Source of the DNA: Staphylococcus phage vB_SsapH-Golestan-100
Strand: one strand, 5' to 3'
Length of the DNA stretch: 64,000 nt
Sequence record: LC647030.1
Part shown: positions 8,061-52,570 of the stretch, piece by piece
How the letters are laid out: each line of letters begins with the position of its first letter
How positions within the stretch are numbered: the stretch's first letter is position 1
Made by a program: the position numbers and the translations under genes
The notes under the pieces: model-generated
What the model saw: only the letters and a program-made list of their open reading frames with translations
What the model was told of the DNA's origin: nothing
Database searches by the model: none

Positions 8061-8099
8061 AAGGTAAGAACTCCCACATTCAAGATTAAATAACTATAT

Positions 8100-8473: not shown

Positions 8474-8514
8474 TACTTGCTATATTATTCAAGCAAGGAA
8501 AATATAAAGAAAGA

Positions 8515-28100: not shown

Positions 28101-29207
28101 GGAGGAGTTAAGTCCTTCTTTAGTGGTGGAGACGATGATAAGAAAAAAGATGGTAAGAAAAAAGATAAAACTAAAGGTAGAAAAGTAGACAAAGGAAGTC
28201 ACGTAGGTGCTTTTTCTAAGGCCTCAACAGCACCTCTTATTTCAGGCGTAGGTATGAAGGTAGGAATGTTCCCTACTAATACTGATGATGAAGAGAAAGA
28301 GAAAGGTGACAAGGCTAAAGGTAATAAGAAGAAAAAAGACCGTATGTCAGCAGAAAGACTACGTGAGAAGAACAATACTACTGAAACTAAAAACCTTTCT
28401 GTTTACAGAAACCTTTTAGAAAGAGCTGAACAAGTCCTCAATGATGCTAAATCACTTGACATGAATGGAGGAGACTCTGAAGGTGGAGACTCTGAAGGTG
28501 GTTCTGCTTCAGATGTAAAAGGTAAAGGAAAAGAAAAGATTTATAAATTCCTTAAAGGTAAAGGGTTATCTGACAACCAAGTATCTGCTGTTATGGGTAA
28601 CTTGCAACAAGAATCTCAGCTAGACCCTAAAGCTGTTAACAAGTCCAGTGGAGCTTTTGGTATTGCTCAATGGATGGGTTCTAGAAAATCAGGCCTTGAT
28701 GCACTAGCTAAGAAAAGAGGTAAAAAGAATACCGACCTGGATGTCCAACTTGATTATTTATGGTCAGAGATGGAAAAAGGGTATGACGCTGACATGCTGA
28801 AAAATGCAGGTTGGAGTGATAAAGCAAGTCTAGAAAAGAATACTGAAGCATTTGCTACTGGCTTTGAGCGTATGGGAACAGATGAAGCCATGATGAGTAC
28901 TCGTATCAGCAATGCTAAGAAATATAAGAAACAGTATGGTAAAGGCGGTAAAGGTGGAGGAGTTGTACTAGGTGGTTCAGGAGGAGGAGTTGCAATGGCT
29001 TCTCTTGACAATAACGTAACACCTATGGTAAACTCTTCACAGGGAGGAAATAACTCTTCAAATACAGATAACCGTACTTACAACGTTACAGTTAATGTCA
29101 ATGGTGCAGGAGACCCGCAACAAGTGGCAGAAAGTACAGCTAGCAAAATAGAGAGTATGTTACAGAATTCCAATGACTTCTTCTCTAGACAGCAAAACAA
29201 GAGATAG
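25167..29207 (+). CDS. Tail tape-measure protein with a C-terminal lysozyme-like (lytic transglycosylase) domain
   Basis: TTG start with RBS ggtaggtga. 1346 aa with coiled-coil and Gly-rich segments. ESQLDPKAVNKSSGAFGIAQWMG is an SLT/lysozyme-like motif at about aa 1150-1240. Confidence 0.7.
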   Translation: MDNYRIRVTGDGSNALNEIQKINKAMDNIDKRDSGKGFKGIESALKNVSKLTDEINKSVDNASNKSVLSQSQLEKDQKNIQQTLDTLRALRTEVDRATKQASKKGLTLDPQAQRSYKALGKEIDKIAQKRDMLGSKNVKPDASMRQAINDAKVFESRTQKATDALREQQRVAKQLQRDNREATRASRIVNDGLTNGRVTYNDRQRLNSALDKGRDVGGTPSYYKQQSNKIQSNIESSGSAIRENREKIEALNKRPQNLENKERKAQLMDENEELEKLIRNLQKAKGRYEDMDATAKKNFNATKTETGRDSFGTQAERGSFKATMADRAPSIAMAGIGATGFALTSSYMKGDTINKSNRDDMFFRGNLMGETDYGQVRRDMFSQGIDAGYGYNAENLNAMAGQYLEVNGYQGKKSMEEGLTQYQRAGRSLNIDNEAFQQSYTNIGRTGGMQGGQEIADFTNTFVGALDKSKMTHKSEQQLKALDSMVSQMGSTRTLGANDVNEMTALQGVMAESGLKTLQGEKGADAVNKISTGLQSNKTDPFNLQAMGYGSELNSVSGLREAMRREDEGATPENIKRLISQSGGGDMSAIALQTQFGLSSEQADGMLKLYDEGKLDKKNIDKYMEDSKKKGKKKADKDSDNVKDSKENKANKNEVARESQNSRTRENGQWVDDLASAGTSLNNAGYLLTAAAGALMVSATGSALMGGLSSMVRKLGSKGIKGTGQHYGGKVKEFGSKAKEWGGNVRRGGSDNAGKTSKGGESTKGGTKGGQTDSMRDFKTFDKDSTSGKTKRGRMRGFGKTITDAGRSFGDFIGLGGDTAKNQNGRGLGRSATGNTRRAKFGKGLKDFIFRDPMSKGGAGIISGGSKAGNIAKGAVGKLGLIGAGINAIDIGSSLAKGDDKAVSSKFGNFMGGIIDPLGLGYGDGLKKHATETADKAQNNKGLFGKGGLIDFSWSNGDKDSKNQFKDSILGKPISKAWGGVKSFFSGGDDDKKKDGKKKDKTKGRKVDKGSHVGAFSKASTAPLISGVGMKVGMFPTNTDDEEKEKGDKAKGNKKKKDRMSAERLREKNNTTETKNLSVYRNLLERAEQVLNDAKSLDMNGGDSEGGDSEGGSASDVKGKGKEKIYKFLKGKGLSDNQVSAVMGNLQQESQLDPKAVNKSSGAFGIAQWMGSRKSGLDALAKKRGKKNTDLDVQLDYLWSEMEKGYDADMLKNAGWSDKASLEKNTEAFATGFERMGTDEAMMSTRISNAKKYKKQYGKGGKGGGVVLGGSGGGVAMASLDNNVTPMVNSSQGGNNSSNTDNRTYNVTVNVNGAGDPQQVAESTASKIESMLQNSNDFFSRQQNKR

Positions 29208-29232
29208 GGTCTTCCCTATCTCTTTATTTTTA
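29202..29232 (+). terminator. Rho-independent terminator
   Basis: agataggg/ccctatct stem followed by ctttattttta. Confidence 0.5.
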
Positions 29233-29251: not shown

Positions 29252-31645
29252 GTGGTCATAAATAAAAAGTTTCCAGGATTTAAAGTTTCTTTTAAAAGTG
29301 AGGAAAATGAATACTCAGTTAAATACAATACTAATGTAACCCCATCTTCTGAGCTTATAGAGGATAGGATAGTTGGGATGCAAAGTAAAAATGCCTTTGC
29401 AGATGATGCAGGAACATTCAGTGTTGTGTTAGCAGGAGACACTTATTGGGATAAACTTATAGATGTAAATGACATTATGAGAATATACATTAATCCTGAT
29501 ACAACAGATTCAAATAAGAGCTATCAAATGGTTGCTATAGGTATGGTTAGTAGAGTTGCAAAACAAGGGTCATATGACCAAAATCAAAATACCTATTTAA
29601 TAACTGGTCAATCATTTGCAAAACCTTTTATGAAGTTTGGTTTAGGAGTTATACAAGAGGTACAATCAGTACTCTCTAGTGTCGGGTGGCTACCTGATGG
29701 TGGAGATAAAGGTATACAATTTACAGGCTCTAACGCTAGAGATGTAGCAGAGCAAATACTAAATAGGTTTTCTAAGTTTATGAAATATAATTATGACAAT
29801 AAACAAACACCAATCACAGATTTTTTTGAGTGGAATCTAGATTCCTGGACAGCCTATGAAAACCTTAAAGACCCAACACCGTACATAAACTTCGATGGTT
29901 CTTTGAAGCAACTGTTAGATGATGTTACAGCAAAACCTTTCAATGAGTCATTCTTTAGGAATAGTACAATCACTGATAAAGGTGAATACGTAATGAGAAG
30001 AACTCCTTTTAATGTGACAGATTGGAAAAACCTAGATTATGTAGGTATAACTACACGAGATGTAATAGAGGAGGATGTAAGTAAAAGTGATACAGAAACT
30101 AACTCTATATTTACAGTTACAAGTCCTCAAATGATTAAAGAACTATCTCCTGACCTATTCTCTAAACCCCAATTTCACCAATCATTAGTTGATAGATACG
30201 GTTACTCTAAACTAGAAGTCGAAAACAGGTATATTGCTATTGATTCAAAAACAGGTGAGGGTGATGAAGACAAGGATAAAGATAAGGAATCTGAGACATC
30301 TAAAGGTACTGATAACCTTACCTACAATAGAATCAGTGTAATATTTAGTAACTATGACAAACAAACAGCTCAAGTAAACTCTAAAAAACTTACAGGTCAA
30401 ATTGCAGGTACTTATAAAGGCGTTTCTAAAAAGCAAGCTAAAAAAGCTGTAGATAAGTTTATAAAATCAGGTCAATTTACAAAAGCTGATTATAAAGAAG
30501 CATTTAATAAAGACCCTGATGAAGAAGTTAAAGAGGATAAACGTGAAGAACCTACCGTAGCAAATGTTAGAGGCTATTTAAAAGACAAGTACCCTGAAGC
30601 TAAAGGTCTTAAAAAGACAGCTGACAGAAATGAAGCAATAGATAAGCTAGTTAAAAAGTATAAGGGCGTAACTAACATTACAGGAGCCAACCTTATAAAT
30701 AAATATGTAAAATCAAACGGACAATTACCTGATAGTGATTATCAAGCCTTTATAAAGTCATTACAAGATGGGCAAAACACAGCTATAGAAACTGACACAG
30801 ATGAAGGTACTGAGGGTTTGAAGGTCTTCTCTAAAATGCTATTTAATTGGTATCACATGAACTCTAACTTCTATTCAGGAGAAATTACTATAGTAGGTAA
30901 TCCGTATATAGAACTTGGTAAGAGACTATTTATTATAGATAAACAAGATAATGATAACTGGGAGTTTTACATAGAATCTGTTGAGCATAAGTTCACTTTT
31001 AAAGAAGGTTTTAAAACCGTTATAGGCGTTACTAGAGGATTGAAAGAAGCTACAGTTCCTGAAGGAAGTCCATACAGATTTGGTGTGCTGTGGAACAAAT
31101 CATCAGACTTTAAAGGTGGATTACTGGGTGAGAAAGAATCAGAAGACCTTAAAAAAGAAGGTTATGAATCTAAGAAAAGTAAGGGTGACGATTCAGACAG
31201 CTCAGGAGCTAATGATGGTGGTAGTCTTGATAAACTAAAAGAGTTTGACGGTAAGTTACCTAAATATGATTTTAAAACACGTTCAGGAAACTACTTTACT
31301 GTTAATCAGTGTACATGGTACTGTTATAATAGAAGAGCCCAGCTAGGTATTAAGCTAGAAATAAGTCAAAGTAACTGGTGGCACGATGCTTGGAAATGGG
31401 TAGACAGAAGTAAGAGAGATGGATACAGTGGAGGTAAAACCCCTAAACAAGGAGCTGTTGCTGTATGGCAACGTGGAGTACCAGGAGGAAGCGCTCAGTT
31501 TGGTCACGTATCTATTGTAGAGAAGGTTCTAGATGGTGGTAAAAGAATGAAATTATCAGAGTATAACTTTAAAAATCCTGAAGCCTACGGTGAACGTACA
31601 GTAGATGTTGACAATGACGTATACTTCATATATGATAAAGGGTAG
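29252..31645 (+). CDS. Tail-associated peptidoglycan hydrolase with a C-terminal CHAP domain
   Basis: GTG start. 797 aa. NQCTWYCYNRR...GHVSIVEKV is a CHAP Cys/His motif within the last about 110 aa. Confidence 0.7.
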   Translation: MVINKKFPGFKVSFKSEENEYSVKYNTNVTPSSELIEDRIVGMQSKNAFADDAGTFSVVLAGDTYWDKLIDVNDIMRIYINPDTTDSNKSYQMVAIGMVSRVAKQGSYDQNQNTYLITGQSFAKPFMKFGLGVIQEVQSVLSSVGWLPDGGDKGIQFTGSNARDVAEQILNRFSKFMKYNYDNKQTPITDFFEWNLDSWTAYENLKDPTPYINFDGSLKQLLDDVTAKPFNESFFRNSTITDKGEYVMRRTPFNVTDWKNLDYVGITTRDVIEEDVSKSDTETNSIFTVTSPQMIKELSPDLFSKPQFHQSLVDRYGYSKLEVENRYIAIDSKTGEGDEDKDKDKESETSKGTDNLTYNRISVIFSNYDKQTAQVNSKKLTGQIAGTYKGVSKKQAKKAVDKFIKSGQFTKADYKEAFNKDPDEEVKEDKREEPTVANVRGYLKDKYPEAKGLKKTADRNEAIDKLVKKYKGVTNITGANLINKYVKSNGQLPDSDYQAFIKSLQDGQNTAIETDTDEGTEGLKVFSKMLFNWYHMNSNFYSGEITIVGNPYIELGKRLFIIDKQDNDNWEFYIESVEHKFTFKEGFKTVIGVTRGLKEATVPEGSPYRFGVLWNKSSDFKGGLLGEKESEDLKKEGYESKKSKGDDSDSSGANDGGSLDKLKEFDGKLPKYDFKTRSGNYFTVNQCTWYCYNRRAQLGIKLEISQSNWWHDAWKWVDRSKRDGYSGGKTPKQGAVAVWQRGVPGGSAQFGHVSIVEKVLDGGKRMKLSEYNFKNPEAYGERTVDVDNDVYFIYDKG

Positions 31646-31659: not shown

Positions 31660-32577
31660 ATGGAAGTAACAAAAAGACTAGCAACAGACACTATAAACAA
31701 ATTTATATATAATACAAATGAATACATCAGTAACAGTTTAGAAGAGCAAGCAGAAAAGGACAAAGAGTTGGATTCACTTGTAATACCTGACTTAATACCC
31801 GCAATATCTGAAGTTAGGCCTTACACTAACATTGTTACAGGAATGCGTATCATAGACTATAACATTAACTATAATAGGCTAGATAATTATAAAGTAGATG
31901 CTGATGTTGAATTAACTTCTAGAAGTGCTTTGACAACAAGTACAACTAGCTCTACCAATGTAATAAAAATAAAATTAGTTTTAGAGCCTATTAATGAGAG
32001 TCTATTAATTACAGAGTATAGTAAAGATGTAGTTAATATCAGTGAGGAAGATACTTATGATGAAGACATGGCAGAGGGTATACCTATGGTTATATCCTTT
32101 ACTAATTCATTACTAGAAGACAAACCTAATTTAACTAATCTATATTATGCTTATAGAGGAAGACCTTCTACAGACCCATTAGACTATATTAACGATAATC
32201 CTGTAGGCGTGGACATGTATACTATAATTTACTGGATGATGAAACACCAAGAAATACCTAATGACTTTAATTATCCTTTGACATCAGAGGACTTTATAAG
32301 TTATGATGGTATATATGAGGTATACTCTAAAGGGCATAAGTATAAGTATTATCTTGATGAGATGGAAAAAGGTGACTTTGTATTCTTTGATGATAATGAC
32401 ACTACAGTAGGTATATACATTGGAGACAACAGATGCATCACCATTACAGGTAAACAGCCATATGACAGAAGTGGAGGTTTAGACTTTATTGTATTAGAGG
32501 ATGAATGGTGGGATAGATTTAATGGTAGGATTATGAGATTTAAAGAGGAGGATGTAGTAAGATGGGAGCTAATGTAG
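31660..32577 (+). CDS. Tail/baseplate protein (305 aa)
   Basis: ORF with RBS tagggggtaa. Called from its position. Confidence 0.45.
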   Translation: MEVTKRLATDTINKFIYNTNEYISNSLEEQAEKDKELDSLVIPDLIPAISEVRPYTNIVTGMRIIDYNINYNRLDNYKVDADVELTSRSALTTSTTSSTNVIKIKLVLEPINESLLITEYSKDVVNISEEDTYDEDMAEGIPMVISFTNSLLEDKPNLTNLYYAYRGRPSTDPLDYINDNPVGVDMYTIIYWMMKHQEIPNDFNYPLTSEDFISYDGIYEVYSKGHKYKYYLDEMEKGDFVFFDDNDTTVGIYIGDNRCITITGKQPYDRSGGLDFIVLEDEWWDRFNGRIMRFKEEDVVRWELM

Positions 32578-35500
32578 TAAGAAGACAATCAGGACTTGGA
32601 ACTACCTTTTCAGAAACAACTTCTGAAGACAATAAAATGAAGAGCTTGATTTTAGCTAGAATCATAAAAGTATACTATAAGTATCAAACTGTTGAATTAG
32701 AGGCACTATCAGGTAAGTTGTCATTAGGTAAAGGTAACAACACAGAAGGTAGATTTTCAGCTCCATATCCTAAGTCTTTCACAGGATTAACTCCTGAGAA
32801 TGAAGTATATGGCTCTATACCTGTTATGTCTCCAGGCATGATAGTACTTGTTGGTTTTATTAATGATAACCCTAGTAACCCTATAATCGTTAATAGTTAT
32901 GGACTAAATGAGCATAATAAGCAATTAGTTAGAACACCATTATTAAGTGGTGACATGAGAGATGGCAAGAACTATAAATTCAACTCAGCATCTTTTACAC
33001 TATCACCTAGTTTAACTTATCAGTTTAAAGATGGTGAAGGCAATGAAGTTAATACATGGAATGGTTATACATTTCAATCTATAACTTCTGATGCTAATAA
33101 TTTACCTGTAGCTACTGACTACATGGATGGTAGTTATTACATGGATTTATATACTAGTAAGTATGGTGACGGTTCTTTAATTGAACCTAGAACTAAGCAA
33201 GCTCCTGCAATATTTTTTAAACACCAAGGAGAATATACATCAGATGGTGAGTTAGATAATCATATATACATGGACTATATAGAGCCTGATGGTACACATA
33301 GAACTACTTCTATGAATAGAGAAGAGCAATGGAGAACATCTGTTGAGCAAGGACATAAAGGTGACTGGAGAGTAAGGTACCAAGCAGATAGCATTATATT
33401 AGACGATGCACTAGACTACATAGAATTTGGTTTAGATAGTGATAACCAAAGATTTTATGTAGAAAACCCAAATCATTCTTTTGAAGTCACAGATGAGGGT
33501 ATTATGGTTGATGGAAAGCCTCTATTAGCTAACATAGATGACAGTATTGAAGAAGCCTTTAAACATCTAGATGAGATAGAAAGTCAAATGGAAGAAGTTC
33601 AGAACATACTTGAAGGCTTAGGTGAGAGAAGTTTAAGAGAACTTATAAACGCTACTAATGAAGCTATAGCTAAAACTGAACAAAATGAAACTAAGATAAG
33701 TGCGCTTAATAAGGCTATAAATGAAAATACTAATAATATTGCAGGTATGATAGAGAAGTACGATAACTTTATGGATACTGTAAGAACCTATATTCAAGAT
33801 AATGATACTAATATTAACAGTATTAGAGACCGATTGAGAGCGGTTGAAAACTCATCTGATTTAGAACCACTCAAAAAAGATTTAGAAAAATATAAATATA
33901 AAACATACAAAGATGTTAGAGTGGAAGCTGATTTACCTAGATACTTTGCTGGTTATGATGCTATACTAACAGGCTCTCAAAATACAAAGTATAACTTGCA
34001 AGCATTTGCCATGGATAGTAAATACTACTTTTTATTATTTAAACCTGAAGGTTCAGGAGACAAAAGAAATATCTTGGTAGTTTATGATAAGTTTTTAAAA
34101 GAAATCAATAAGTATTTCTTTGGCCAAGGAGTAATTCAAACGATAGCTATTGACGTGCCTGCTAATACGACTAATCGTTATCTCTATACTAAGCTCGATG
34201 ACCAAACAATAGTTTCTTATGACTTAACAGCAATAGATAGTAAGGATGTCTTGACATTTAGTGACATTACTAGTAAAGAGCCTAGAGCATCATATTCAGT
34301 ACCTGTTCAGGACACTATACTAAAGGTTAGAGATAACTGGTTAGTTAAGACAGTAATTGACAGCTTTGGTTATGCTACTTACACGCTTTATGATAAGAAT
34401 TTCTCTAACCCATCTAAGTTATACAAATTACGTAATAATAGTAATGTTGTAGGCTCTATGATGGATGGTGGAAACTTAGCCCAAGTAATTCAAACCCAAA
34501 ATACAGCAGGAGTACAAATAGTTAATTCTGACAATAGTATTCAGGATTACACGTACAGTAACACAGAGTTAAACTCCTTTATCCAAAGTAAGATAGGAGT
34601 TTCTACTTCAACAGCTAAACAGGTAGGTGCTTTTAGTAGCTCTGATGTTTACTTATCTACTATAGTTTACAATGAGGATACAAGCTATGGAAAGACTAAG
34701 GGCATTGCGATTATAGAACATAAAGCATCTAATAGGGATTACAAGTTTAGAGAGTTCTCTTTACCTGTAGACCAAAGACTTACAGTGGCCTGTATAGGTA
34801 CAAAGCTATTTAACACAAATACAAACTCTGAGATTAATAGTATAGAGGATTTACTCACTACTATGACAGACTTGAAGATGAGTTCATTCTCACTATATAC
34901 AAGTAATACTAATATAATTGATTTTAATTCATCTACAAAAGTACCTACAGATGTTATTGTAACTATATCCATGTTAACGGATAAAACATTCTATGTTACC
35001 TATACATTTACTAAAAACAACCAAGAGAACAATTACATCATAAAGAACACAAGCTCAGGTTATGCTTACACAAGTATTGATAATGAACCTGTACTTAATA
35101 ACATAGATGTATATACACTTAAAAATGTAGGTAAATCGTACGTAGTAAATGGTACTAACCTACCTGAAGGAAGTACAGAAGGCTTTGTAGAATTCAGACA
35201 AACACCTAATGCAAGTTTGTTAGTATTTATTGATGCTACATCATTAAACCAATACGGTGCTATAAAAAAAGGCACACAATGGGGAGATTGGAAACTATTA
35301 TCAAAGGAGATTTTTAAACCAAAAGGAGGCGGGTCGGATAAGTATAAATCAATGACAGAGTTGATGAGTGTGGTTCCTGCTGGTACACAATGGGAGATAG
35401 TAACTAAAAACCTATATTCAGACACACTGGTATCAGCCATACATGGAGGAGGTATAGAGATAGGTACATCAGAGTTAGCAGAAGAAGTAGCAACAGAATC

Positions 35501-35960
35501 TAACAAGGATTACTTCTCCTTCTTAGGTAAGAAATCATCAAATAACTCTGAATTACATGTTACCTCTACTAATTATGATGAGCCTACATTGTTTACTATG
35601 CTTAGACGTTCTTTATATTCTGTAGCAATACACGGAGCTAGTGGAGATGACAAAGTTATCTATGTAGGAGGAGCAGACGCTACAAACAAGGCTATCATGA
35701 AAGCAGAACTGATTAATGCTGGATTTGACGCTCAAGATGCTCCTGATAACCTAGCGGGTCTAGAGCCAAATAATATATCTAATCAGACCAAAAGAAAAGG
35801 GTGTGTTCAGTTAGAGTTAACTACAGCACTTAGAAAATCATTCTTTTTAAATGATGACTGGTCTAAAGCTAACAGAAGTAATAGGGATAATTGGACACCT
35901 ACTCTATTTAACTTAACAACAGCTATAACAACTGCAATTAGTAAATTTGAAAATGACTAA
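32562..35960 (+). CDS. Large tail fiber/baseplate protein with a C-terminal poly-gamma-glutamate hydrolase (PghP)-like domain
   Basis: 1132 aa. The C-terminal about 200 aa carry AIHGGGIEIGTSELAEE ... LHVTSTNYDEPT ... AIHGASGDD ... YVGGAD, which matches the PghP/Gamma_PGA_hydro family signature as I recall it. Confidence 0.5.
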   Translation: MGANVVRRQSGLGTTFSETTSEDNKMKSLILARIIKVYYKYQTVELEALSGKLSLGKGNNTEGRFSAPYPKSFTGLTPENEVYGSIPVMSPGMIVLVGFINDNPSNPIIVNSYGLNEHNKQLVRTPLLSGDMRDGKNYKFNSASFTLSPSLTYQFKDGEGNEVNTWNGYTFQSITSDANNLPVATDYMDGSYYMDLYTSKYGDGSLIEPRTKQAPAIFFKHQGEYTSDGELDNHIYMDYIEPDGTHRTTSMNREEQWRTSVEQGHKGDWRVRYQADSIILDDALDYIEFGLDSDNQRFYVENPNHSFEVTDEGIMVDGKPLLANIDDSIEEAFKHLDEIESQMEEVQNILEGLGERSLRELINATNEAIAKTEQNETKISALNKAINENTNNIAGMIEKYDNFMDTVRTYIQDNDTNINSIRDRLRAVENSSDLEPLKKDLEKYKYKTYKDVRVEADLPRYFAGYDAILTGSQNTKYNLQAFAMDSKYYFLLFKPEGSGDKRNILVVYDKFLKEINKYFFGQGVIQTIAIDVPANTTNRYLYTKLDDQTIVSYDLTAIDSKDVLTFSDITSKEPRASYSVPVQDTILKVRDNWLVKTVIDSFGYATYTLYDKNFSNPSKLYKLRNNSNVVGSMMDGGNLAQVIQTQNTAGVQIVNSDNSIQDYTYSNTELNSFIQSKIGVSTSTAKQVGAFSSSDVYLSTIVYNEDTSYGKTKGIAIIEHKASNRDYKFREFSLPVDQRLTVACIGTKLFNTNTNSEINSIEDLLTTMTDLKMSSFSLYTSNTNIIDFNSSTKVPTDVIVTISMLTDKTFYVTYTFTKNNQENNYIIKNTSSGYAYTSIDNEPVLNNIDVYTLKNVGKSYVVNGTNLPEGSTEGFVEFRQTPNASLLVFIDATSLNQYGAIKKGTQWGDWKLLSKEIFKPKGGGSDKYKSMTELMSVVPAGTQWEIVTKNLYSDTLVSAIHGGGIEIGTSELAEEVATESNKDYFSFLGKKSSNNSELHVTSTNYDEPTLFTMLRRSLYSVAIHGASGDDKVIYVGGADATNKAIMKAELINAGFDAQDAPDNLAGLEPNNISNQTKRKGCVQLELTTALRKSFFLNDDWSKANRSNRDNWTPTLFNLTTAITTAISKFEND

Positions 35961-35962: not shown

Positions 35963-35990
35963 AGAAGAGGATAACACCTCTTCTTTTTTA
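35963..35990 (+). terminator. Rho-independent terminator
   Basis: agaagagg/cctcttct stem followed by T6. Confidence 0.6.
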
Positions 35991-36093
35991 TTGTATGTTA
36001 TATTAATTTTGAAGAAGACCACAAGATAAAATACTTGCAATACCTTATAAGTATGGTATAATAATTGCATAGACTATAGAAAGGAGTTATATT

Positions 36094-36888
36094 ATGCCTC
36101 AATCAGACGGTACAAATACACTAAAAAGAATTGCATTACACTTTTCTGATGACAATGGTAGTTTTACTAACTCTACTGAAGACATTTATAGATTTGCTGT
36201 AAACCCTGAAAATTATAGACATACAATGCCACAACGTTCTAATGTTTTAAAAACTAAGTCAAGTATAATAGTAGAAGACTATGGAAAAGACATTGAAACT
36301 ATTACCTTTTCAGGTACAACAGGCTTTAGAAAGATAAAACAAAATGGCAAGGTAATGAATGGTAAACAAAGAATGGATGAGTTAATATCTCTAGTAGACT
36401 ACTACGCTCAGTCAAGTGGAGGTAGCGGTAATAGACCTTCACATTTAAGATTTTATAATCGTACAGACGATGTTAACAAACTAGTGACATTAGCACCTGA
36501 AGGATTAACAGTTACAAGAGACAAAGAAAATCCATTGATGTACCAGTATGAAATAACATTAATAGTTTTAGGGTTTGCTTGGGAAGATGGAGACAATGCA
36601 AAAACAGACCCTGAGTTTGGTAACGTTAAACCTAGTCCTAGCCAAGATGCTACCAATAAGTTTTTAGACCAAAATGACTATGACTACGGGTATAGAGACC
36701 AAAATAATAATGCTATGAACAATGGTGACAACAGGTTTACTGACCATATCAAAGATACTGATAACAACATACAAGCTAATAATACTAGTAGTACAGTAGC
36801 TAACCCAAGAGTTAACCTCAGAGGTATGTCGAGTTCTGTATCAAATATGGCTCAAATTGTAGGCTATGGGAATGGTGGTGTAGGTTAA
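36094..36888 (+). CDS. Baseplate/tail protein (264 aa)
   Basis: ORF with RBS aaaggag. Confidence 0.45.
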   Translation: MPQSDGTNTLKRIALHFSDDNGSFTNSTEDIYRFAVNPENYRHTMPQRSNVLKTKSSIIVEDYGKDIETITFSGTTGFRKIKQNGKVMNGKQRMDELISLVDYYAQSSGGSGNRPSHLRFYNRTDDVNKLVTLAPEGLTVTRDKENPLMYQYEITLIVLGFAWEDGDNAKTDPEFGNVKPSPSQDATNKFLDQNDYDYGYRDQNNNAMNNGDNRFTDHIKDTDNNIQANNTSSTVANPRVNLRGMSSSVSNMAQIVGYGNGGVG

Positions 36889-39199: not shown

Positions 39200-42100
39200 T
39201 TGGGTAACTTTTTAAAATACATACATCCTCTACTGAAAAGAAAGAAAAGTGATAAGAATTATGAGGATGTAAACTACGCTATAATAAATGCTCTAGACAC
39301 TGAAATAAGTGATTTAGAAAAAGAGGCTATGGCAAGTAAAATACAGTCATCTCTAAAAACCGCAAAAGGAGAGTATTTAGACCTTTGGGGTGAGTGGTTT
39401 TATGTAACAAGAAGAGACAATGAGGAAGATGACTTGTACAGAGAACGTATTATAAAGTTCTTATTATTGAAAAGAGGAACTAATAATGCTATTATCGAAG
39501 CATTAAGAGACTTTTTAAATGACTATGATTCTTACATCAATATCTATGAACCGTTTACTAATATCTTCTATACTAATAAATCTAAACTTGATGGGGAAGA
39601 CCATCTTATGGGTGACTATTACCGTTTTGCTATTATCGACATCACATTAGGTCGTAAGTTCCCTGTAGAGATTATAGACGTTATTAATGAGTTTAAACCA
39701 GCAGGAGTTAAGTTTTACTTAACCTATGACCACTCAAGAGATGTAGAAGGTGATGGTATTATAGAGATGCCACCAGCTAATGTAGACATAACTGCTAGAA
39801 CACATATCAGAACTTTAGGAGGTTACGGAGGTTATATTAGAGGTCATGTTAATTTAGGAAATTTAACTTATAAATCCATTTTTGACTATGAAGATGATAG
39901 AGAGGGTAGCAATAATATCTTTAAAACTGATAATTCCCTAATTAATAGTTTAGATGTTCTAGGAGGGGAAGCAGGAGCAGGAAGCAAGTATGCTAATACC
40001 GCTATGTTAACATCCAAAGCTTACTACCCTACACCTCAAGATACAGCACATACTTTTAGTGAAACAAGTGGCGTTACATTGCTAGACTCAGAGTTTAATA
40101 GAGGTACCAATAAAATAGATAATCTAGTAGGCTCTTTAAAAACATTAGGAGGTAACAAGGAAAGTAATATTTACATAGGTCTTGATGTCTATCGTTACTT
40201 AAATCTAAATTACCCTAGTACGGTTAAGGACTATGCAGATACTTCAGAGCTAAAAAACAAAATTACGAAGGTTACAAAAGACCCTAAGATAGTTTTTAAA
40301 GCTAATGCTTTAGTGTCACCTTCAGAACCTGTATCAGCCCATATGTATATATTTAACTTTACTAACAACCAATGGGATTTTTTAGATACAGTAAATCTTG
40401 ACTTGAATGGTGTTCATAAGACCGCAGAGCTAGGTAACTTATATGACAACATATCAGATACTGGAACTGTATTCTTGAAGGGTGTGGTAGATGCTACTGA
40501 AGAGCAGATACAGATAAATGTAGACTATCTAGACCTATCATTTAAAGATTATGTAAAAGATTACTATACTATAATGCCTTATGAAGGTTCAGTAGTAGGC
40601 TACCATAATCTTATAAACCTAGCTGTAGAAGTTAACGCTTATAAGACGTATACAGGCTCTAACCCTGAAGTTATGTTAGATTCTTATTACAGACCCACGG
40701 GATTTTATAGGATTAAAGGTTTAGGCTCTACTAGAATATCTCATGTGTTGAAAGATGAAGATTATAATATGGGTATAGAATCTGAAGAGAATAGCTATCA
40801 CTATTTACCTACAGGGCTTCTTAGTAAAGAATATCTTAAACCCTTTACTATTACAGATGACAAAACTTATTTAACTTTAGATAATAATTTCAACTTTGCT
40901 GAATACTATACACTTAGCTTTATGCTAGACAATAGTGCGGACATTAACACTAGTGAGTATAAATTGCACTTTTATCAAGAAAGAAAGTCAACAAATACTC
41001 AAGAGCTTGTAGCTACTTTTAACTTATCCGATAGCTCTAAAAGCTCAGAAGAGGTGTTTAGTCAAACTAAGCAATTCCTTAAGTTCCCGTACAAAGAAGC
41101 TATTGGTGACGATGACATTAACTTTTATGTTAAAGCTGAATCTACTGGTCAGAATGCACAAGAACCTTTACAGGTTAAAGCATTTGTGTTAAAAAATTCT
41201 AGTATAGTTAAGGATGTTCCCTCAGATGCTAGCTCTATTTCTTATGGAGGTCAGAGTAACCTAAGAGATTACACAATAGAGGATACAGAAAATGGTGTGT
41301 ACTTAAAATCACCTACTGATGGGATTTTTGACTTTGCCTTAAGTTTCCCTGATGCTCCTAAGACGGACAAGGAGAAACCCTATTATTACAATGAACTTAT
41401 TGAAAAAGGACTTACACCATCGCTTTTAATTCCTTATAAAGTTACTGATGGTACTAAAGGCAGTGGAATGGTTAGAGCGTATATCAGAGACACTAAAACA
41501 AGTGCTATTATTTCTAGCTTTTATATAAGCAACAATAAAGATTCAAATTCTCCTTATGATTATATAACTATACCATTATCTAAGCTAAATTCTTCTAGTA
41601 GTCTTTACATATCTACGAGTAGCATCACTGGCATTAAGATTATAGGAAACATGAAAATAGCATTTTACACAGAAGACAATGCACTAACTTTATCATCAGG
41701 AATGTCTTACTTGCCTATAGTATCTAAAGAGTATATTGTTAAAGGTGAGATGACAGTTAAGTTTAAAATGAATAAGAAATATAGTTTACAAGAACTTCAA
41801 TTGTATTATGGTACAAGAAACACTCAAGGTATGGAAAATGTACCTTATTCATTAGAAAATGTCCAACAAGTTACTTCTACGGTTGTAGATGATACTACAA
41901 ATGAGTATTTATTTACGGTCAAAGTACCTACAGCACGCAGGGGTTATAACATAGAAGATGTTTATTCATTGTTAACTGACATGTCTAAACTCGAAGTAGA
42001 ATCCAAAGATGATACAACAGAAGTTTTTAATGATTACGATGACACGTATACAATAATTAATTATAGTAACCCTATAGACGTAACTATACCTATATATAAT

Positions 42101-43213
42101 AGTACTGTATTTAAAGAGTATCCTGTTGTTAATAGCTCTGTTGATACCTATCAGTTATATTTAAGTCTGATGAGTCCTGTAGCCACAACAGTTAAACTAT
42201 CTACTACTGTATCAGAAGAGCAAACGTATGAGTTAGAGGCTAATAAAGTATACCGACTACATATCCAAACCCCTATCTCAAATGGTCGTAATGCACCTAT
42301 AAACTTGAATATTAAATCAAGCAGTACTGAGTTGACTTATGGTTCATTTATTTATGTGAATGATGACCAAGACTTAGCTCGATTTATTAAAGAAGAAGAA
42401 CCTATAAAGATAGCAGTACCTATGCAAGAAGACTCTTTACAAGTTAGAGACTTAGAAGTTACAGTACCGCAGTCAGAAGATAGTGAAGATGGTGTTACTG
42501 ACTCTTATCTAACGGTTACTTCAACAGACGGTAGTGAGATACCTCTATATGAGTATCGTGCAGATTCTTTAAACAAGGAGCGTAAAAACTATAGCCTTCA
42601 TGGTAACTACACTAACATTAGTAAAGTTACTTACCACTCAGACGGAATCTTGAAGAATGTTGAGATTGAGCGTTCTATTGATGGTAAAAACTGGAAGCCG
42701 ATAGAAAGTATAAAACCTGACCTAGCTGAAGGTGAGACATTAGCTATTAATAATGAGTTGATTGGTAAATATGGTATTGATGTCTTTAGTTTAGACACTA
42801 TTAATGCAATGTCTAAAGTTCTTCTTAGAAGTATATGGGAGACAAAAATAGAAGAGTTTGAAAATGGTAGTAACACAGACGTTAGTAGTATATCTGACGA
42901 TTTCTTTAATACTACCTTTACTAACCTTGTACATCTAGCTGAATTAAAAGAGAACAAAATCACAGTTATTACTGATGTACGTGGCGGTAATATGGATAAC
43001 TCATCAGGAGAGGTAATTAGTATGAGTGGCTCAGACCCTATATCAAGAGCTGTACTCCATATGAATTCAGAGACCGCAACTAGATACAAGCTACCATTAT
43101 TAGCAGGTTCTTACGTAGCATTAGAAGAACTAGGTGACAAGACTTATAACGATACTGAGTATGAAGTTAATGAGGACTATAAAGCCTATTCTTACAGAAA
43201 AGAAAATAATTAA
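39200..43213 (+). CDS. Large baseplate/tail protein (1337 aa)
   Basis: TTG start with RBS aaaggaggg. Called from size and position. Confidence 0.5.
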   Translation: MGNFLKYIHPLLKRKKSDKNYEDVNYAIINALDTEISDLEKEAMASKIQSSLKTAKGEYLDLWGEWFYVTRRDNEEDDLYRERIIKFLLLKRGTNNAIIEALRDFLNDYDSYINIYEPFTNIFYTNKSKLDGEDHLMGDYYRFAIIDITLGRKFPVEIIDVINEFKPAGVKFYLTYDHSRDVEGDGIIEMPPANVDITARTHIRTLGGYGGYIRGHVNLGNLTYKSIFDYEDDREGSNNIFKTDNSLINSLDVLGGEAGAGSKYANTAMLTSKAYYPTPQDTAHTFSETSGVTLLDSEFNRGTNKIDNLVGSLKTLGGNKESNIYIGLDVYRYLNLNYPSTVKDYADTSELKNKITKVTKDPKIVFKANALVSPSEPVSAHMYIFNFTNNQWDFLDTVNLDLNGVHKTAELGNLYDNISDTGTVFLKGVVDATEEQIQINVDYLDLSFKDYVKDYYTIMPYEGSVVGYHNLINLAVEVNAYKTYTGSNPEVMLDSYYRPTGFYRIKGLGSTRISHVLKDEDYNMGIESEENSYHYLPTGLLSKEYLKPFTITDDKTYLTLDNNFNFAEYYTLSFMLDNSADINTSEYKLHFYQERKSTNTQELVATFNLSDSSKSSEEVFSQTKQFLKFPYKEAIGDDDINFYVKAESTGQNAQEPLQVKAFVLKNSSIVKDVPSDASSISYGGQSNLRDYTIEDTENGVYLKSPTDGIFDFALSFPDAPKTDKEKPYYYNELIEKGLTPSLLIPYKVTDGTKGSGMVRAYIRDTKTSAIISSFYISNNKDSNSPYDYITIPLSKLNSSSSLYISTSSITGIKIIGNMKIAFYTEDNALTLSSGMSYLPIVSKEYIVKGEMTVKFKMNKKYSLQELQLYYGTRNTQGMENVPYSLENVQQVTSTVVDDTTNEYLFTVKVPTARRGYNIEDVYSLLTDMSKLEVESKDDTTEVFNDYDDTYTIINYSNPIDVTIPIYNSTVFKEYPVVNSSVDTYQLYLSLMSPVATTVKLSTTVSEEQTYELEANKVYRLHIQTPISNGRNAPINLNIKSSSTELTYGSFIYVNDDQDLARFIKEEEPIKIAVPMQEDSLQVRDLEVTVPQSEDSEDGVTDSYLTVTSTDGSEIPLYEYRADSLNKERKNYSLHGNYTNISKVTYHSDGILKNVEIERSIDGKNWKPIESIKPDLAEGETLAINNELIGKYGIDVFSLDTINAMSKVLLRSIWETKIEEFENGSNTDVSSISDDFFNTTFTNLVHLAELKENKITVITDVRGGNMDNSSGEVISMSGSDPISRAVLHMNSETATRYKLPLLAGSYVALEELGDKTYNDTEYEVNEDYKAYSYRKENN

Positions 43214-43868: not shown

Positions 43869-46800
43869 ATGGCTTATGATTTTTCAAGCAGACCATATTA
43901 TGATAGATTTAACCAAAGCAAGAATATAACAAGAGTTCTATTTAAACCCGATGTTCCCTTACAAAACTCAGAATTGAATGAGATGGCATCAATCCAATCT
44001 AGTGCACTTCAATTATTAGGAGATTCTATCTTTAAAGATGGAGACATGCAGTCGGGACTGAACTATACGATAGATGGAAATAATGTATTAACAGTTAACC
44101 CTGGTTACTTATATATTCAAGGAAAAATGAGATACTATGATTCTAACGACAGCGTTAAGTTAACAGGAGTAGGTAAAGAACAAGTAGGTATTAAAGTCGT
44201 TGGTTCTATCGTAACTAGCGATGATGATAATAGTTTATTAGACCCTGCTACAGGAGCTCCAAGTTATTTCTCTGAAGGTGCAGACCGTTTTAAAGAGGAA
44301 TTAAAATTAACATTAAACGACCCAACATCTGCTACTATCTATACATTCCAAAATGGAGACTTATTTACCAAACCGAGTGACCCTCAATTTGATAAAGTAG
44401 TTAAAGTTATGGAACAACGTACTTTTGAGGAATCAGGTTCTTACAAAGTACAAGGCCTTACAATCTTCTCAGCGGAAGAGCAAGATGAAGAAAGTGGTTT
44501 TGTTAATATTGTAGTAGATACAGGAGTAGCTTATGTAAAAGGTAGACGTATTGAAAAACCTACTTCTACACATATTGCTCTAGACTCAGCTACTGATTTA
44601 GAGAATGCACAGAATGAGAGTACTATTTATAATAAATCTACTGATAGAATTAGATTAGCTAATACACCTGTCAAAGACATTAATCGTGTATCGGCATCTG
44701 TTGCAATCACTAAAGAACGTAAAACAAGAGATGCTATTGGAGACTCTCAAGATTATTTAGCTAATAACACAGCGTATAAAATAACTAGAGTTTGGACTGA
44801 GAACTCAAGTGGTGATGTAACTAAAGAATATAAACAAGGAGAAGACTACAACCTGATTGATGGTCAAGCAGTAGATTGGTCTCCTGGAGGTCAAGAACCT
44901 GCATCAGGAGCTTCTTACTATGTAGCATATGAGTACACTAAAAGATTAGAAAAGGGTGTAGACTTTGTTGTAGAAACTGAAGGTGAAGGACAATTTAAAC
45001 GTTGGTTCCTTAATTTCTCTAAAGCAACAGGTGTTAAGCCTATTGACCAATCATTAGTGCAAGTAGACTATACTTTCTACTTAGCTAGACAAGACTTACT
45101 TAGCTTGAATGTAAATGGTGAAGTAGTTGTACTTAAAGGTAAACCTAACTTAATGAGATTAGTTAACCCACCAATCCAGGAAGACCCTGAGACATTACAA
45201 TTAGGTTATGTTACGGTCTTACCTAACTCTACAGAAACAGACTGTGTTACTGATGCTATAACTAACTTATCTATGGAGCAATTACAAAAAGTTAAAACAC
45301 GAGTAGATAACTTAGAAATTAACCAAGCCATTAATGCATTAGATGATGGAGCTATGGAAGGTCAGAACCCGTTATACTTACGTTCAGTATTTAGTGAAGG
45401 CTTTATTAGTTTAGATAAAGCTGACATTTCACATCCTGACTTTGGTGTAGCATTTAGTTTTGATGATGCAGAGATTACACTTCAGTTTACAGAAGAAGTA
45501 CAATCACCGACTGTTTCTCAGATTACAACAAATGCTCATGTATGGGGACGTATCATATCAGCTCCATTTACAGAGGAACTTTCCATCTATCAACCATTAG
45601 CTTCGGAACCTTTAAACGTTAACCCTTATAATATCCCTAACAAACAAGGGGTTATGAAGTTAACACCATCTGAAGATAACTGGATTGATGAAGAACGTGT
45701 TACTATTACAGAACAGAAAACAAAAACAATTACTATGAACCGTTGGTGGAGACACCCTGGTCGTGATTTTGGTTCTAAACAAGATTACTACCAAAGTAAT
45801 ATTCAACTTGATAAAGGTCAAGTGTGGGAAGGTAAGTCATATGCTTATGATAAAGAGCATGGACGTACAGGTACATTACTAGAATCAGGTGGTCATAGAA
45901 CGTTAGAAGAAATGATTGAGTTTATTAGACAAAGACAGGTTAAGATTGATGTCAAAGGATTAAATCCTAATGATAATGACTTATACTTACTGTTTGATGG
46001 CATCCGTTGTGCCTTAACTCCTGAGTCAGGATTTAGAAAAGGTAGTGAGCCTGGTACAGTTATGTCTGATGAGAAGGGTAGAGTTAAAGCAACATTTGAG
46101 ATACCAGCAGGTGTACGTTGTGGTAACAGAGAGGTTACATTGAAAAATGCTAACTCTACAAGTGCAACGACTTACTCAGCTCACGGACGTAAGAAGATTA
46201 CACAAGACATTATCTTAAAAACACGTGTTACGATTAACTTAGTTGACCCATTGGCTCAGTCATTCCAATATGATGAGAACCGTATTATATCATCATTAGG
46301 TTTATACTTCGCATCGAAAGGTGACGCTAACTCTAATGTTACAGTACAGATTAGAGGAATGGGAGACCAAGGTTTCCCTAACAAAACTGTCTATGCAGAA
46401 ACTGTATTGAATGCTAGTGAGGTTAAAGTGTCTAAGAATGCTAGTGCAGAAACTAGAGTATACTTTGATGACCCTATGATGGCAGAAGCAGGAAGAGAGT
46501 ACGCTATTGTTATCATGACAGAAAATAGTGACTACACTATGTGGGTTGGTACTAGAACACAACCACGTATTGATAAACCTAGTGAGAACATCTCAGGTAA
46601 TCCATATGTACAAGGTGTATTATTCAGTTCATCAAACGCATCAACATGGACTCCACATCAAAACTCTGACCTTAAATTTGGTATCTATACACCAGTATTT
46701 GAGAAAGAGGCAGTAATAGAGTTTGACTCTATGAAGAATGTTAAAGCTGATAGACTTGTATTAATGTCTACATACTTAACACCTGAAAATACAGGCTGTG

Positions 46801-47330
46801 CTTGGGAAGCTAAGATTCTTAGAGAAGACATGGACTCTAGTGTAACGATTGACTCACTTCCATGGCAACCAATAGCTAACTACCAAGATTTAGAACTTAT
46901 TGAGATTGCTAAAGAAGTAAAATTAAGAGCAACTTTTGATTCTAATAAATACATTTCTCCACTATTATCTGTTAGTGATTTGACATTCACATCATTCTTA
47001 ACAGAATTATCAGGAAGTTATGTAGGTAGAGCTATAGACATGGCTGAAGCTCCTTACAATACGTTGAGATTTAGTTATGAAGGCTTCTTACCAAAAGGTA
47101 CAAAGATTGTCCCTAGATACTCTACTGACAATGGTGAGACGTGGAAGACGTTAAGTAGTTCTCCAAAAACACAAAAAGCCAATAATGAGTTTACACGTTA
47201 TGTATATGATGAAAAAGTTACTACTGGAGCTAAGTTTACAAAACTACAAGTTAGGCTAGACCTTTCTACTGAAAATAGTTTCTTAAGACCACGTTGTAGA
47301 AGATTGATGGTCACTACAAGAGATGAGTAA
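43869..47330 (+). CDS. Adsorption-associated tail protein (1153 aa)
   Basis: RBS aaggagaa. Size and position match the about 1150-aa adsorption protein of Twort-like phages. Confidence 0.5.
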   Translation: MAYDFSSRPYYDRFNQSKNITRVLFKPDVPLQNSELNEMASIQSSALQLLGDSIFKDGDMQSGLNYTIDGNNVLTVNPGYLYIQGKMRYYDSNDSVKLTGVGKEQVGIKVVGSIVTSDDDNSLLDPATGAPSYFSEGADRFKEELKLTLNDPTSATIYTFQNGDLFTKPSDPQFDKVVKVMEQRTFEESGSYKVQGLTIFSAEEQDEESGFVNIVVDTGVAYVKGRRIEKPTSTHIALDSATDLENAQNESTIYNKSTDRIRLANTPVKDINRVSASVAITKERKTRDAIGDSQDYLANNTAYKITRVWTENSSGDVTKEYKQGEDYNLIDGQAVDWSPGGQEPASGASYYVAYEYTKRLEKGVDFVVETEGEGQFKRWFLNFSKATGVKPIDQSLVQVDYTFYLARQDLLSLNVNGEVVVLKGKPNLMRLVNPPIQEDPETLQLGYVTVLPNSTETDCVTDAITNLSMEQLQKVKTRVDNLEINQAINALDDGAMEGQNPLYLRSVFSEGFISLDKADISHPDFGVAFSFDDAEITLQFTEEVQSPTVSQITTNAHVWGRIISAPFTEELSIYQPLASEPLNVNPYNIPNKQGVMKLTPSEDNWIDEERVTITEQKTKTITMNRWWRHPGRDFGSKQDYYQSNIQLDKGQVWEGKSYAYDKEHGRTGTLLESGGHRTLEEMIEFIRQRQVKIDVKGLNPNDNDLYLLFDGIRCALTPESGFRKGSEPGTVMSDEKGRVKATFEIPAGVRCGNREVTLKNANSTSATTYSAHGRKKITQDIILKTRVTINLVDPLAQSFQYDENRIISSLGLYFASKGDANSNVTVQIRGMGDQGFPNKTVYAETVLNASEVKVSKNASAETRVYFDDPMMAEAGREYAIVIMTENSDYTMWVGTRTQPRIDKPSENISGNPYVQGVLFSSSNASTWTPHQNSDLKFGIYTPVFEKEAVIEFDSMKNVKADRLVLMSTYLTPENTGCAWEAKILREDMDSSVTIDSLPWQPIANYQDLELIEIAKEVKLRATFDSNKYISPLLSVSDLTFTSFLTELSGSYVGRAIDMAEAPYNTLRFSYEGFLPKGTKIVPRYSTDNGETWKTLSSSPKTQKANNEFTRYVYDEKVTTGAKFTKLQVRLDLSTENSFLRPRCRRLMVTTRDE

Positions 47331-51295: not shown

Positions 51296-51997
51296 TTAAG
51301 TACAGGATATTTCCTGTGCTTTTTTTTTCTCATACCTTCCAAAGTTGAATAGTCGATTTTCATCATCCTTATCTAATTGTTTTAATCCTGCGTCTAACTT
51401 CTGGTGTGCTTGTGCAATTTCTTTTTGGGATATTTTATTGATGTTGGTAACGCCTAACCAACGCATTGTTTTTTCTAACGTGGCATCTCTACCTTTTTCT
51501 TGAGAGATAGTTACAAATTGATTAATCTTTTCTTCAAGCTCAGTTACGTCATTATCATTGGCACTTGGTAATTCTTCACCGTTATAGATGTACAACCCTA
51601 GTCCATGTAACGCTGCCGCTTTAACGAAGCATCTTTTCTGTGCTTTGTTGATGTCGAATGTAGTTGCGCTACCTTTAGCTAATGATTTATTTCTAAAATC
51701 TAGTACAGGCAACCATTCGGTTTCAGTTTGTCCTTTAACCGTTACTGATACTTGAACAAAATAACCTTCTGGTGCAGCTAAATATGGAACGAAATAATCA
51801 TCTCTTTCAACATCTGGATGTGGAAACTCATGTGTTTTAATAGTGAAATTTGGGTCAATCTTCTTTAATTCTTGGTGTGCATATGACCATGCAAGATAAG
51901 TAAGTCCATTCTTTTTCTCTACATGATCGTTTACATTTTTGGAATTAAGTTGATTAAATAGTGTTTGTTCAGTCATAATCCACCTCTTCATATTCAA
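51296..51997 (-). CDS. Putative Rad52-like single-strand annealing protein (Sak/DUF1071-type)
   Basis: The N-terminal LTYLAWSYAHQELKKIDPNF resembles the Sak-family YLSWA motif. Confidence 0.35.
   Translation of the reverse strand: MNMKRWIMTEQTLFNQLNSKNVNDHVEKKNGLTYLAWSYAHQELKKIDPNFTIKTHEFPHPDVERDDYFVPYLAAPEGYFVQVSVTVKGQTETEWLPVLDFRNKSLAKGSATTFDINKAQKRCFVKAAALHGLGLYIYNGEELPSANDNDVTELEEKINQFVTISQEKGRDATLEKTMRWLGVTNINKISQKEIAQAHQKLDAGLKQLDKDDENRLFNFGRYEKKKAQEISCT
51301..51329 (+). terminator. Rho-independent terminator at a convergent junction
   Basis: tacagga/tcctgtg stem followed by T9. Confidence 0.6.
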
Positions 51998-52518: not shown

Positions 52519-52570
52519 AGATAGTAACCTTATATTGTGAGGTGGTAGTTAGCCACCTCGTGTGGTATAA

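Follow-up and report, generated by a model that had tools for sequence, protein, structure and literature searches.

The predicted central spike gene of Staphylococcus phage vB_SsapH-Golestan-100 lies in a stretch of 64,000 nucleotides from record LC647030.1, which was analysed as a whole and is called the window below. The gene encodes a protein of 1132 amino acids (aa) that ends in a zinc hydrolase domain of the family acting on poly-gamma-glutamate (PGA). BDA81514.1 of this phage is 100% identical to the window protein over all 1132 residues, and the gene shares 96% DNA identity with its counterparts in the S. capitis myoviruses Fi4S2 and S2G3. A ribosome-binding site (RBS), GAGGAGG, is located 11 nt upstream of the ATG, and the open reading frame (ORF) is closed by a TAA stop codon at 35958-35960. 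The gene and its parts are as follows.

32562..35960, plus strand: predicted central spike gene, 1132 aa plus stop codon (BDA81514.1).
32562..33887, plus strand: N-terminal spike module, aa 1-442, with baseplate-embedded OB and beta-prism domains and a coiled-coil shaft.
33912..34769, plus strand: beta-propeller head resembling that of a receptor-binding protein (RBP), aa ~451-736.
34782..35309, plus strand: second all-beta domain of the head, aa ~741-916, from the same AlphaFold2 model.
35316..35339, plus strand: linker KPKGGGSD, aa 919-926, with the codons AAA CCA AAA GGA GGC GGG TCG GAT.
35322-35329, plus strand: in-frame AAAGGAGG in the linker, 7 nt before the conserved D-K-Y and encoding Lys-Gly-Gly.
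35334..35957, plus strand: PghP/PghL-type zinc gamma-PGA hydrolase domain, aa 925-1132, with the Pfam core (aa 928-1110) at 35343-35891.
35442..35459, plus strand: zinc ligands H961 (35442-35444) and E966 (35457-35459) in the HGGGIE motif, equivalent to PghP H40/E45 and PghL H41/E46.
35556..35633, plus strand: substrate/catalytic motif H999-x-T1001-S1002 (35556-35567) and zinc ligand H1024 (35631-35633), equivalent to PghP H78/T80/S81/H103.
35814..35834, plus strand: catalytic E1085 (35814-35816), T1088 and R1091 (35832-35834), equivalent to E165 of PghP and PghL and to T168 and R171 of PghL.

The results of profile searches showed that aa 928-1110 match PF05908 (Gamma_PGA_hydro) with an E-value of 2.8e-54 and 184 bits (curated cutoff 22) over profile positions 1-184 of 191, and no other significant Pfam family was found over the hydrolase region. 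The domain also matched PHROG 4175, named 'poly-gamma-glutamate hydrolase' (E 2.7e-47), and four proteins of solved structure: 21dc (E 1e-33), YndL/PghL 5onj and 5onl (E 5e-31), and PghP 3a9l (E 1e-29). An earlier note, made from the letters alone, had proposed a PghP-like domain at this C-terminus and expected a His/Glu/His zinc triad. Both proposals are borne out, the first by the searches, which led to PF05908 and nowhere else, and the second by the alignment, in which the triad appears as H961/E966/H1024. The peptides quoted there are all present in the protein (AIHGGGIEIGTSELAEE at aa 959, LHVTSTNYDEPT at aa 998, AIHGASGDD at aa 1022 and YVGGADATNKAIMKAELINAGF at aa 1034); the start given there, 35349, is codon 930, and the true start of the domain lies 15 nt upstream at aa 925 (35334), right after the KPKGGGSD linker.

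From the structural work on this family, the zinc ligands H40/E45/H103 of PghP correspond to H41/E46/H102 of PghL, mutation of H78, T80 or E165 abolishes PghP activity, and the PghL side chains that form hydrogen bonds with a gamma-PGA hexapeptide are N73, S74, H77, T79, S80, N151, T168 and R171 (PMC6506827). Mapping through HMMER alignments, we found that 12 of 12 structure-defined residues are identical to those of PghP/PghL, including the equivalents of all the hexapeptide contacts (N995, S996, H999, T1001, S1002, N1071, T1088 and R1091). None of the 12 residues varies in the 12 proteins that share a 90% cluster with the Golestan-100 spike, and the zinc triad, E1085, N1071 and R1091 are retained in 118-120 of 120 wider homologues. 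The alignment to the four solved structures suggests that the domain would adopt a carboxypeptidase-like alpha/beta fold. PghP (Bacillus phage phiNIT1; 3a9l; MEROPS M86) and PghL/YndL (B. subtilis prophage; 5onj) belong to the same PF05908 family at about 36-45% identity, and have the same length of catalytic unit and an identical zinc triad, catalytic Glu and set of gamma-PGA contacts. They are stand-alone soluble proteins of ~200 aa, whereas in Golestan-100 the domain makes up the last 208 aa of a baseplate spike of 1132 aa.

To place the N-terminal part, the phage 812 baseplate served as the template. Residues 5-442 of the protein align to the phage 812 central spike 9euf_B (residues 2-435) and 9eul_A with an E-value of 2e-100, and weak Pfam matches of the coiled-coil type were found at aa 325-440. 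Chain B of 9euf was named the central spike protein and solved inside the phage 812 baseplate, and it is the source of the domain names used here (PMC13433997). The neighbouring genes and signals in the window are as follows.

29199..29224, plus strand: terminator-like hairpin from a consensus scan, with an 11-bp stem followed by a T run.
29252..31645, plus strand: hub protein, 797 aa, with a peptidoglycan hydrolase domain (the CHAP 'cleaver') at its C-terminus.
31660..32577, plus strand: weld protein, 305 aa, matching 9euf_A (phage 812 ORF57) with E 1e-33.
35963..35984, plus strand: terminator-like hairpin, 3 nt past the spike stop codon.
36035-36062: promoter-like site with an extended -10 (TG), upstream of the tube-initiator gene.
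36094-36888: tube-initiator gene, Pfam PF23980, E 7e-76.
43869-47330 and 47628-49583: examples of further RBP genes, labelled 'adsorption-associated tail protein' and similar in Fi4S2.

The hub protein matches 9euf_E (phage 812 ORF56) over its full length (E 2e-230) and contains CHAP at aa 680-772 (Pfam, E 4e-17), while the weld protein gave a weak Pfam match to NlpC/P60. In phage 812, the hub carries the CHAP 'cleaver' and the weld protein clips the spike to the hub (PMC13433997). The gene order hub, weld, spike and tube initiator found in the window is also that of Fi4S2 and of another myovirus locus, L013. Because of the N-terminal homology to 9euf_B and the gene position between weld and tube initiator, the 1132-aa protein is, as judged by homology, the central spike of a Twort-like myovirus baseplate. 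The name 'tail protein' in the earlier note was too general, since the protein is specifically the central spike; the note's description of the enzyme as virion-borne agrees, at the level of homology, with the match of the N-terminal 442 aa to a spike solved in the baseplate and with the position of the gene.

The two hairpins flank exactly the hub-weld-spike trio. The first, just after a 1346-aa ORF ending at 29207, marks the upstream boundary of a hub-weld-spike transcription unit, and the bracketing hairpins, together with the promoter-like site before the tube-initiator gene, suggest that the wall-penetration proteins form a transcription unit of their own.

The central spike of phage 812/K (ORF58; 9euf_B, 9eul) shares with the Golestan-100 protein the N-terminal ~440 aa (OB, beta-prism and coiled coil) and the gene slot between weld and tube initiator, and likewise carries an enzyme at its distal tip. 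The distal domains of the phage 812 spike are a lectin-like knob and a glycerophosphodiesterase 'petal' that was proposed to cut wall teichoic acid (PMC13433997). In Golestan-100, the knob and the petal are exchanged for the beta-propeller head and the PGA hydrolase. By these alignments, the Golestan-100 spike is predicted to be an 812-type spike with exchanged distal modules, in which the hydrolase takes the place of the teichoic-acid-cleaving petal.

BDA81514.1 and its Fi4S2/S2G3 orthologues are deposited in GenBank as 'glycerophosphoryl diester phosphodiesterase', and the top PHROG matches carry the name of a glycerophosphodiester phosphodiesterase (GP-PDE) as well, by which the protein would be a teichoic-acid-cleaving enzyme. 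We found that these PHROG matches cover aa 4-600 only, that is, the N-terminal spike module. No GDPD domain (PF03009) was found by Pfam in the 1132-aa protein at E<1, and tblastn gave no GDPD match in the 64-kb window, while Pfam found GDPD in the control proteins of 184DA, EW2 and Alsa_2 at E 1e-46 to 1e-49. The GP-PDE name evidently comes from PHROG families that match the N-terminal module only, and the domain searches effectively refute the deposited annotation, to which we attach next to no probability. The same name stands on the spikes of PV037055.1, PV037056.1, vB_SscM-1 (NC_047767.1), phiSA_BS1/2, vB_Sau_P68 and MSShimriz1, where it is likely a misnaming too.

The middle 480 residues of the spike had no Pfam match and no homologue in a word-indexed protein search. 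Through an exhaustive HMMER scan of 1.8 billion representatives, we found 15 distant relatives of this region with 26-30% identity, several of which are BppU_N + collagen proteins with the architecture of staphylococcal siphovirus fibres. One of these is encoded in prophage L015 between the tail lysin and the holin, and another relative, P0123 (947 aa), occupies the central-spike slot of the L013 myovirus and lacks the enzyme domain. When the relatives were used as the alignment, AlphaFold2 returned an all-beta model with a predicted local distance difference test score (pLDDT) of 81.3, and Foldseek agreed with this model, the best match in BFVD being the tail fibre of Staphylococcus phage vB_SscM-1 (E 5e-35). 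In the model, the head contains the propeller 'platform' fold of the phi11-type RBP head. The second all-beta domain has its sequence relatives in the C-termini of myovirus spikes (P0123) and of BppU_N + collagen siphovirus fibres. A search of the middle-region profile against PDB sequences matched only the BppU_N part of the siphovirus relatives (6v8i), not the head. Gp45, the RBP of the S. aureus siphovirus phi11 (5efv), shares the platform fold with the modelled Golestan-100 head at only ~9% sequence identity; Gp45 belongs to a siphovirus baseplate, whereas the Golestan-100 head would sit on a myovirus central spike.

With tblastn, a related head of 23-30% identity was found at nearly full length in about 31 other staphylococcal/Mammaliicoccus myoviruses. 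The spikes of vB_SscM-1, phiSA_BS1/2, ZCSS1, Golestan101-M and others (about 940-947 aa) have the N-terminal module and the gene slot in common with Golestan-100 and carry a head of this kind. Unlike the Golestan-100 spike, they end after the head, with no enzyme domain in the checked example, P0123. Among the 12 members of the clade, the mean identity of the head was 93.0% (33888-35330), compared with 96.0% for the N-terminal module (32562-33887) and 96.3% for the hydrolase (35331-35957), and the faster divergence of the head fits a role in determining specificity. The earlier note had regarded the protein, on account of its PGA depolymerase, as a host-range determinant; the RBP-like propeller head in the same protein is a more likely determinant than the hydrolase.

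Golestan-100 lysed 12 of 35 uropathogenic S. saprophyticus isolates and only S. saprophyticus, and the S. epidermidis and S. aureus reference strains were resistant (PMC11951804). The capsule of S. epidermidis, from which the earlier note had argued for a PGA depolymerase, is therefore not directly applicable to this phage. The narrow, strain-dependent host range would fit a reading in which the hydrolase domain serves primarily as a capsule-binding receptor module, with PGA as the primary receptor, as the capsule is for K1- and Klebsiella-specific phages, and with catalysis needed only for movement or dispensable. The fusion of the domain directly behind the RBP-like head, in the most distal part of the virion, and a substrate-binding groove that appears intact from its residues would also fit such a module. 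However, conservation is just as strict for the catalytic residues as for the binding residues, within the clade and among the 120 homologues alike, which indicates selection on catalysis, and the spike has a separate propeller head, with other RBP genes in the window. We consider a mainly receptor-binding function improbable on this balance. A doubtful but somewhat less improbable idea is that the spike both binds and destroys its receptor, a polypeptide capsule: PGA on S. saprophyticus (on S. capitis for the sister phages) would be the obligatory primary receptor; the hydrolase would move the virion through the layer, and PGA differences between strains would explain the host range of 12/35. 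If so, no phage before it would have been shown to use a peptide capsule and degrade it by means of its central spike, and S. saprophyticus would make a functionally important PGA layer.

As for the substrate, S. saprophyticus expresses pgsB and pgsC, which are neighbouring genes under salt regulation, and its chromosome carries three genes of the PGA-hydrolase family, DV527_RS12045, RS07840 and RS11825; salt raises the expression of these three hydrolase genes while pgsB/pgsC drop (PMC8870806). A cap operon is present in S. capitis, the host of the sister phages (PMC4585213), and reference strains of this species are reported as PGA producers (Kocianova 2005 as cited in PMC6225691). PGA-hydrolase genes occur in many staphylococci of the saprophyticus group, where they are probably of prophage origin.

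We favour, with moderate confidence, the reading that the domain works as a zinc-dependent gamma-PGA endohydrolase, tethered to the virion at the distal end of the spike, and together with the RBP-like head removes host polyglutamate from beneath the baseplate ahead of the attack by the CHAP hub. On the model of phage 812, the spike would be a trimer. Homology suggests that its OB/beta-prism part plugs the baseplate channel and that the coiled-coil shaft projects the distal domains toward the cell, where the propeller head may bind a cell-wall glycopolymer. The tethered hydrolase, with Zn2+ held by H961/E966/H1024 and E1085 as the general base, would cut the gamma-glutamyl bonds of poly-gamma-DL-glutamate beneath the baseplate, and the CHAP hub would then attack the peptidoglycan. 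We infer that the enzyme sits at the tip of a trimer and is active there, that PGA is what it cuts in nature, and that events follow this order.

The domain could also act on the wall itself. In this alternative, which we regard as unlikely, the domain would be a virion cell-wall hydrolase that cuts the gamma-D-iGln-L-Lys bond of the stem peptide or peptidoglycan-anchored PGA and cooperates with the CHAP hub to open the wall. It would suit an operon whose other products, the hub with its CHAP domain and the NlpC/P60-like weld protein, degrade the wall, the slot that holds a wall-polymer-degrading domain in phage 812, and plaques that lack a halo; moreover, the domain is found in phages grown on hosts that are not known as PGA producers, and in siphovirus prophages it adjoins CHAP-glucosaminidase tail lysins. 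However, the eight PghL side chains that grip successive alpha-carboxylates are all identical in Golestan-100, and mutation of one of them, R171, affected polymer degradation. The staphylococcal stem peptide has a single gamma bond flanked by non-Glu residues, and the alpha-carboxylate of its D-Glu is amidated. In the literature searched, no PF05908 member was found reported to cleave peptidoglycan. Full conservation of the polymer-gripping residues favours PGA over peptidoglycan as the substrate.

Several points weigh against a PGA endohydrolase at the spike tip. Some of the related phages with the domain had S. carnosus, S. xylosus or S. aureus as propagation hosts. The plaques of Golestan-100 had no halo and hence no visible sign of a diffusing depolymerase (PMC11951804). 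The missing halo is mildly unfavourable to a strongly diffusing depolymerase, and a thin cell-associated PGA layer need not give one. A single-sequence AlphaFold2 model of aa 442-1132 reached a pLDDT of 33 and was discarded, leaving no usable three-dimensional model of the hydrolase, and its placement at the spike tip comes from the homology of the N-terminal 442 aa only.

The capsule-depolymerase tailspikes of Klebsiella, E. coli K1 and Acinetobacter phages rest on the same concept as the proposed spike, in which an enzyme fixed to the virion removes a surface polymer where the phage attaches. Those tailspikes are beta-helix glycanases or lyases that act on polysaccharide and are usually lateral and of podoviruses, whereas the capsule targeted by the Golestan-100 enzyme would be a polypeptide, the domain would be a zinc peptidase of the carboxypeptidase-like kind, and its carrier would be the axial spike of a myovirus that infects a Gram-positive host. 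The 1132-aa protein had no Beta_helix or pectate-lyase Pfam matches; its head is modelled as a propeller and its enzyme is PF05908.

In all Twortvirinae examined, the hydrolase lies immediately 3' of the spike N-terminal module, in one of three arrangements.

Sepunavirus (phage 110, phiIPLA-C1C) and O1-102: spike of 663-717 aa, followed by a separate 222-aa hydrolase ORF.
184DA, EW2 and Alsa_2: spike of 645-675 aa, followed by a 626-630-aa ORF with the PGA hydrolase (N-terminal) and GDPD (C-terminal).
Golestan-100/Fi4S2/S2G3 clade: one fusion of 1132 aa.

The hydrolases of phage 110, phiIPLA-C1C, O1-102, 184DA, EW2 and Alsa_2 belong to the same family at 44-48% identity to the Golestan-100 domain. 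The spikes of these phages (645-717 aa) differ from the Golestan-100 spike in having no propeller head, and the 222-aa hydrolase ORF has its own AAAGGAGG RBS. Among the records inspected, the covalent fusion of spike and hydrolase was found only in the Golestan-100/Fi4S2/S2G3 clade. The rarity of fusions refers to the inspected phage records and loci only, as a word-indexed search with the hydrolase domain missed the 1132-aa cluster present in the same collection, so that absence from that search is no evidence. The profile of PHROG 4175 is 1045 positions long with the hydrolase at its end, which warns that other long hydrolase fusions exist. In the two Bacillus Herelleviridae records checked, we found no long PF05908 fusions.

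In 184DA (L004 5998-7890), EW2 (L005 4998-6887) and Alsa_2 (L006 4998-6878), ~200 aa separate the PGA hydrolase from GDPD, and the genes are annotated as GP-PDE only; their 626-630-aa protein seems to combine two enzymes, each for a different surface polymer. The spike of phage 110 (OQ448195.2; L002 3824-5977) is annotated from 4238 (579 aa), and the open frame from 3824 gives 717 aa, a length that matches the phiIPLA-C1C gene, with an alignment to the spike N-terminus that begins at residue 2. For the phage 110 spike, the start in the record is probably too far downstream.

Outside the Twortvirinae, siphoviruses such as StB20 and the siphovirus-type prophage L009 encode the hydrolase as a gene of its own within the tail-fibre module. 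In L009 (Logan contig ERR4783341_2), a 349-aa BppU_N + collagen fibre gene (6995-8044) overlaps a 227-aa hydrolase gene (8001-8684) by 44 nt, and this hydrolase is the closest free-standing relative of the Golestan-100 domain, at 67% identity. Prophage L015 carries a 743-aa fibre with a propeller head in the slot that is occupied by the hydrolase in L009. It appears that one and the same fibre can be tipped with either the hydrolase or the head. In the two Bacillus phages checked, the hydrolase is a small free-standing gene among non-structural genes, which fits PghP of phiNIT1 as a soluble enzyme that is not a virion component and is released at lysis (PMC6966330).

The linker of the Golestan-100 protein holds a candidate trace of such a separate gene. 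Free-standing enzymes begin at the position equivalent to aa 924, and AAAGGAGG is the RBS of the separate hydrolase gene in phage 110, phiIPLA-C1C, 184DA and EW2. On the plus strand of the window AAAGGAGG occurs only three times, and the other two occurrences are true RBSs (of the genes at 10344 and 39200); the chance of finding it inside a 30-nt junction window is about 7e-4. No start codon (ATG, GTG or TTG) was found 3-13 nt past the junction AAAGGAGG, and the first in-frame ATG lies 25 nt past it, without an RBS of its own. The linker is invariant in 12/12 clade members, and the fused frame of 1131/1132 aa is conserved in the 12 cluster members at 91-100% identity. These sequence features suggest that the junction AAAGGAGG is probably the fossil RBS of a once-separate hydrolase gene. 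The fusion was most likely derived from a two-gene arrangement, a spike gene followed by a separate hydrolase gene, as in the related phages; the stop and start codons would have been lost and the old RBS left as the Gly-Gly codons of the linker. Because stand-alone forms are far more widespread, we infer that the direction of change was fusion and not fission.

A strong Shine-Dalgarno sequence just before the domain could also be taken as a sign that the hydrolase is a soluble factor like PghP of phiNIT1, made by internal initiation or proteolytic release, that helps the progeny to spread through a PGA-rich matrix after lysis. The paradigm enzyme, being a non-virion protein released at lysis, and the free-standing place of the gene in Bacillus phages are in line with such a factor. 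Nevertheless, internal translation from the junction Shine-Dalgarno was rejected, as there is no start codon at the right distance from it, and the conserved fused frame and linker, together with the absence of any reported halo, also speak against a soluble form. The reading of AAAGGAGG as a fossil RBS likewise argues against a separately translated enzyme, and we regard a soluble factor as very unlikely.

The genome of vB_SsapH-Golestan-100 was described as 136,433 bp with 33.7% GC and a largest protein of 1337 aa (PMC11951804), and the window agrees with this in base composition and in having an ORF of 1337 aa at 39200-43213. That description makes no mention of a glutamate hydrolase or depolymerase (PMC11951804). 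We found no tRNA genes and no Rfam matches in the 64,000-nt window. Two short blocks of minus-strand ORFs (2484-5608 and 51296-53296) interrupt an otherwise plus-strand window, and the turning point of the cumulative GC skew lies at about 7-8 kb.

The presence of PF05908 genes in staphylococcal phages was pointed out in 2015 (PMC4497714); 74 staphylococcal phage records carry the family, and in several records the genes are already annotated as such. In a limited literature search, we found no description of a virion-associated PGA hydrolase in staphylococcal phages and no paper on Fi4S2/S2G3; nor did we find described the covalent link of the enzyme to a myovirus central spike, the replacement of the GP-PDE petal, the pairing with an RBP-like head, or the fossil RBS.

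The domain assignment corrects a propagated misannotation, both of this clade's gene and of the enzyme-less, head-bearing spikes of many staphylococcal myoviruses, which carry the GP-PDE label because they share the N-terminal spike module. The distal end of the Twort-like central spike emerges as an exchangeable slot that can hold a teichoic-acid esterase or a PGA hydrolase, the two enzymes together, or no more than an RBP-like head, and this helps to predict which surface polymers limit infection across coagulase-negative staphylococci and may serve host-range engineering. With the Golestan-100 domain, an enzyme family otherwise known from soluble proteins would have a member tethered by nature, in which the fusion has left a readable trace. 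If the domain is active on staphylococcal PGA, it would be a compact candidate (~24 kDa) for stripping an immune-evasion polymer from coagulase-negative pathogens, and could be used to test directly if a PGA layer is formed by uropathogenic S. saprophyticus at all.

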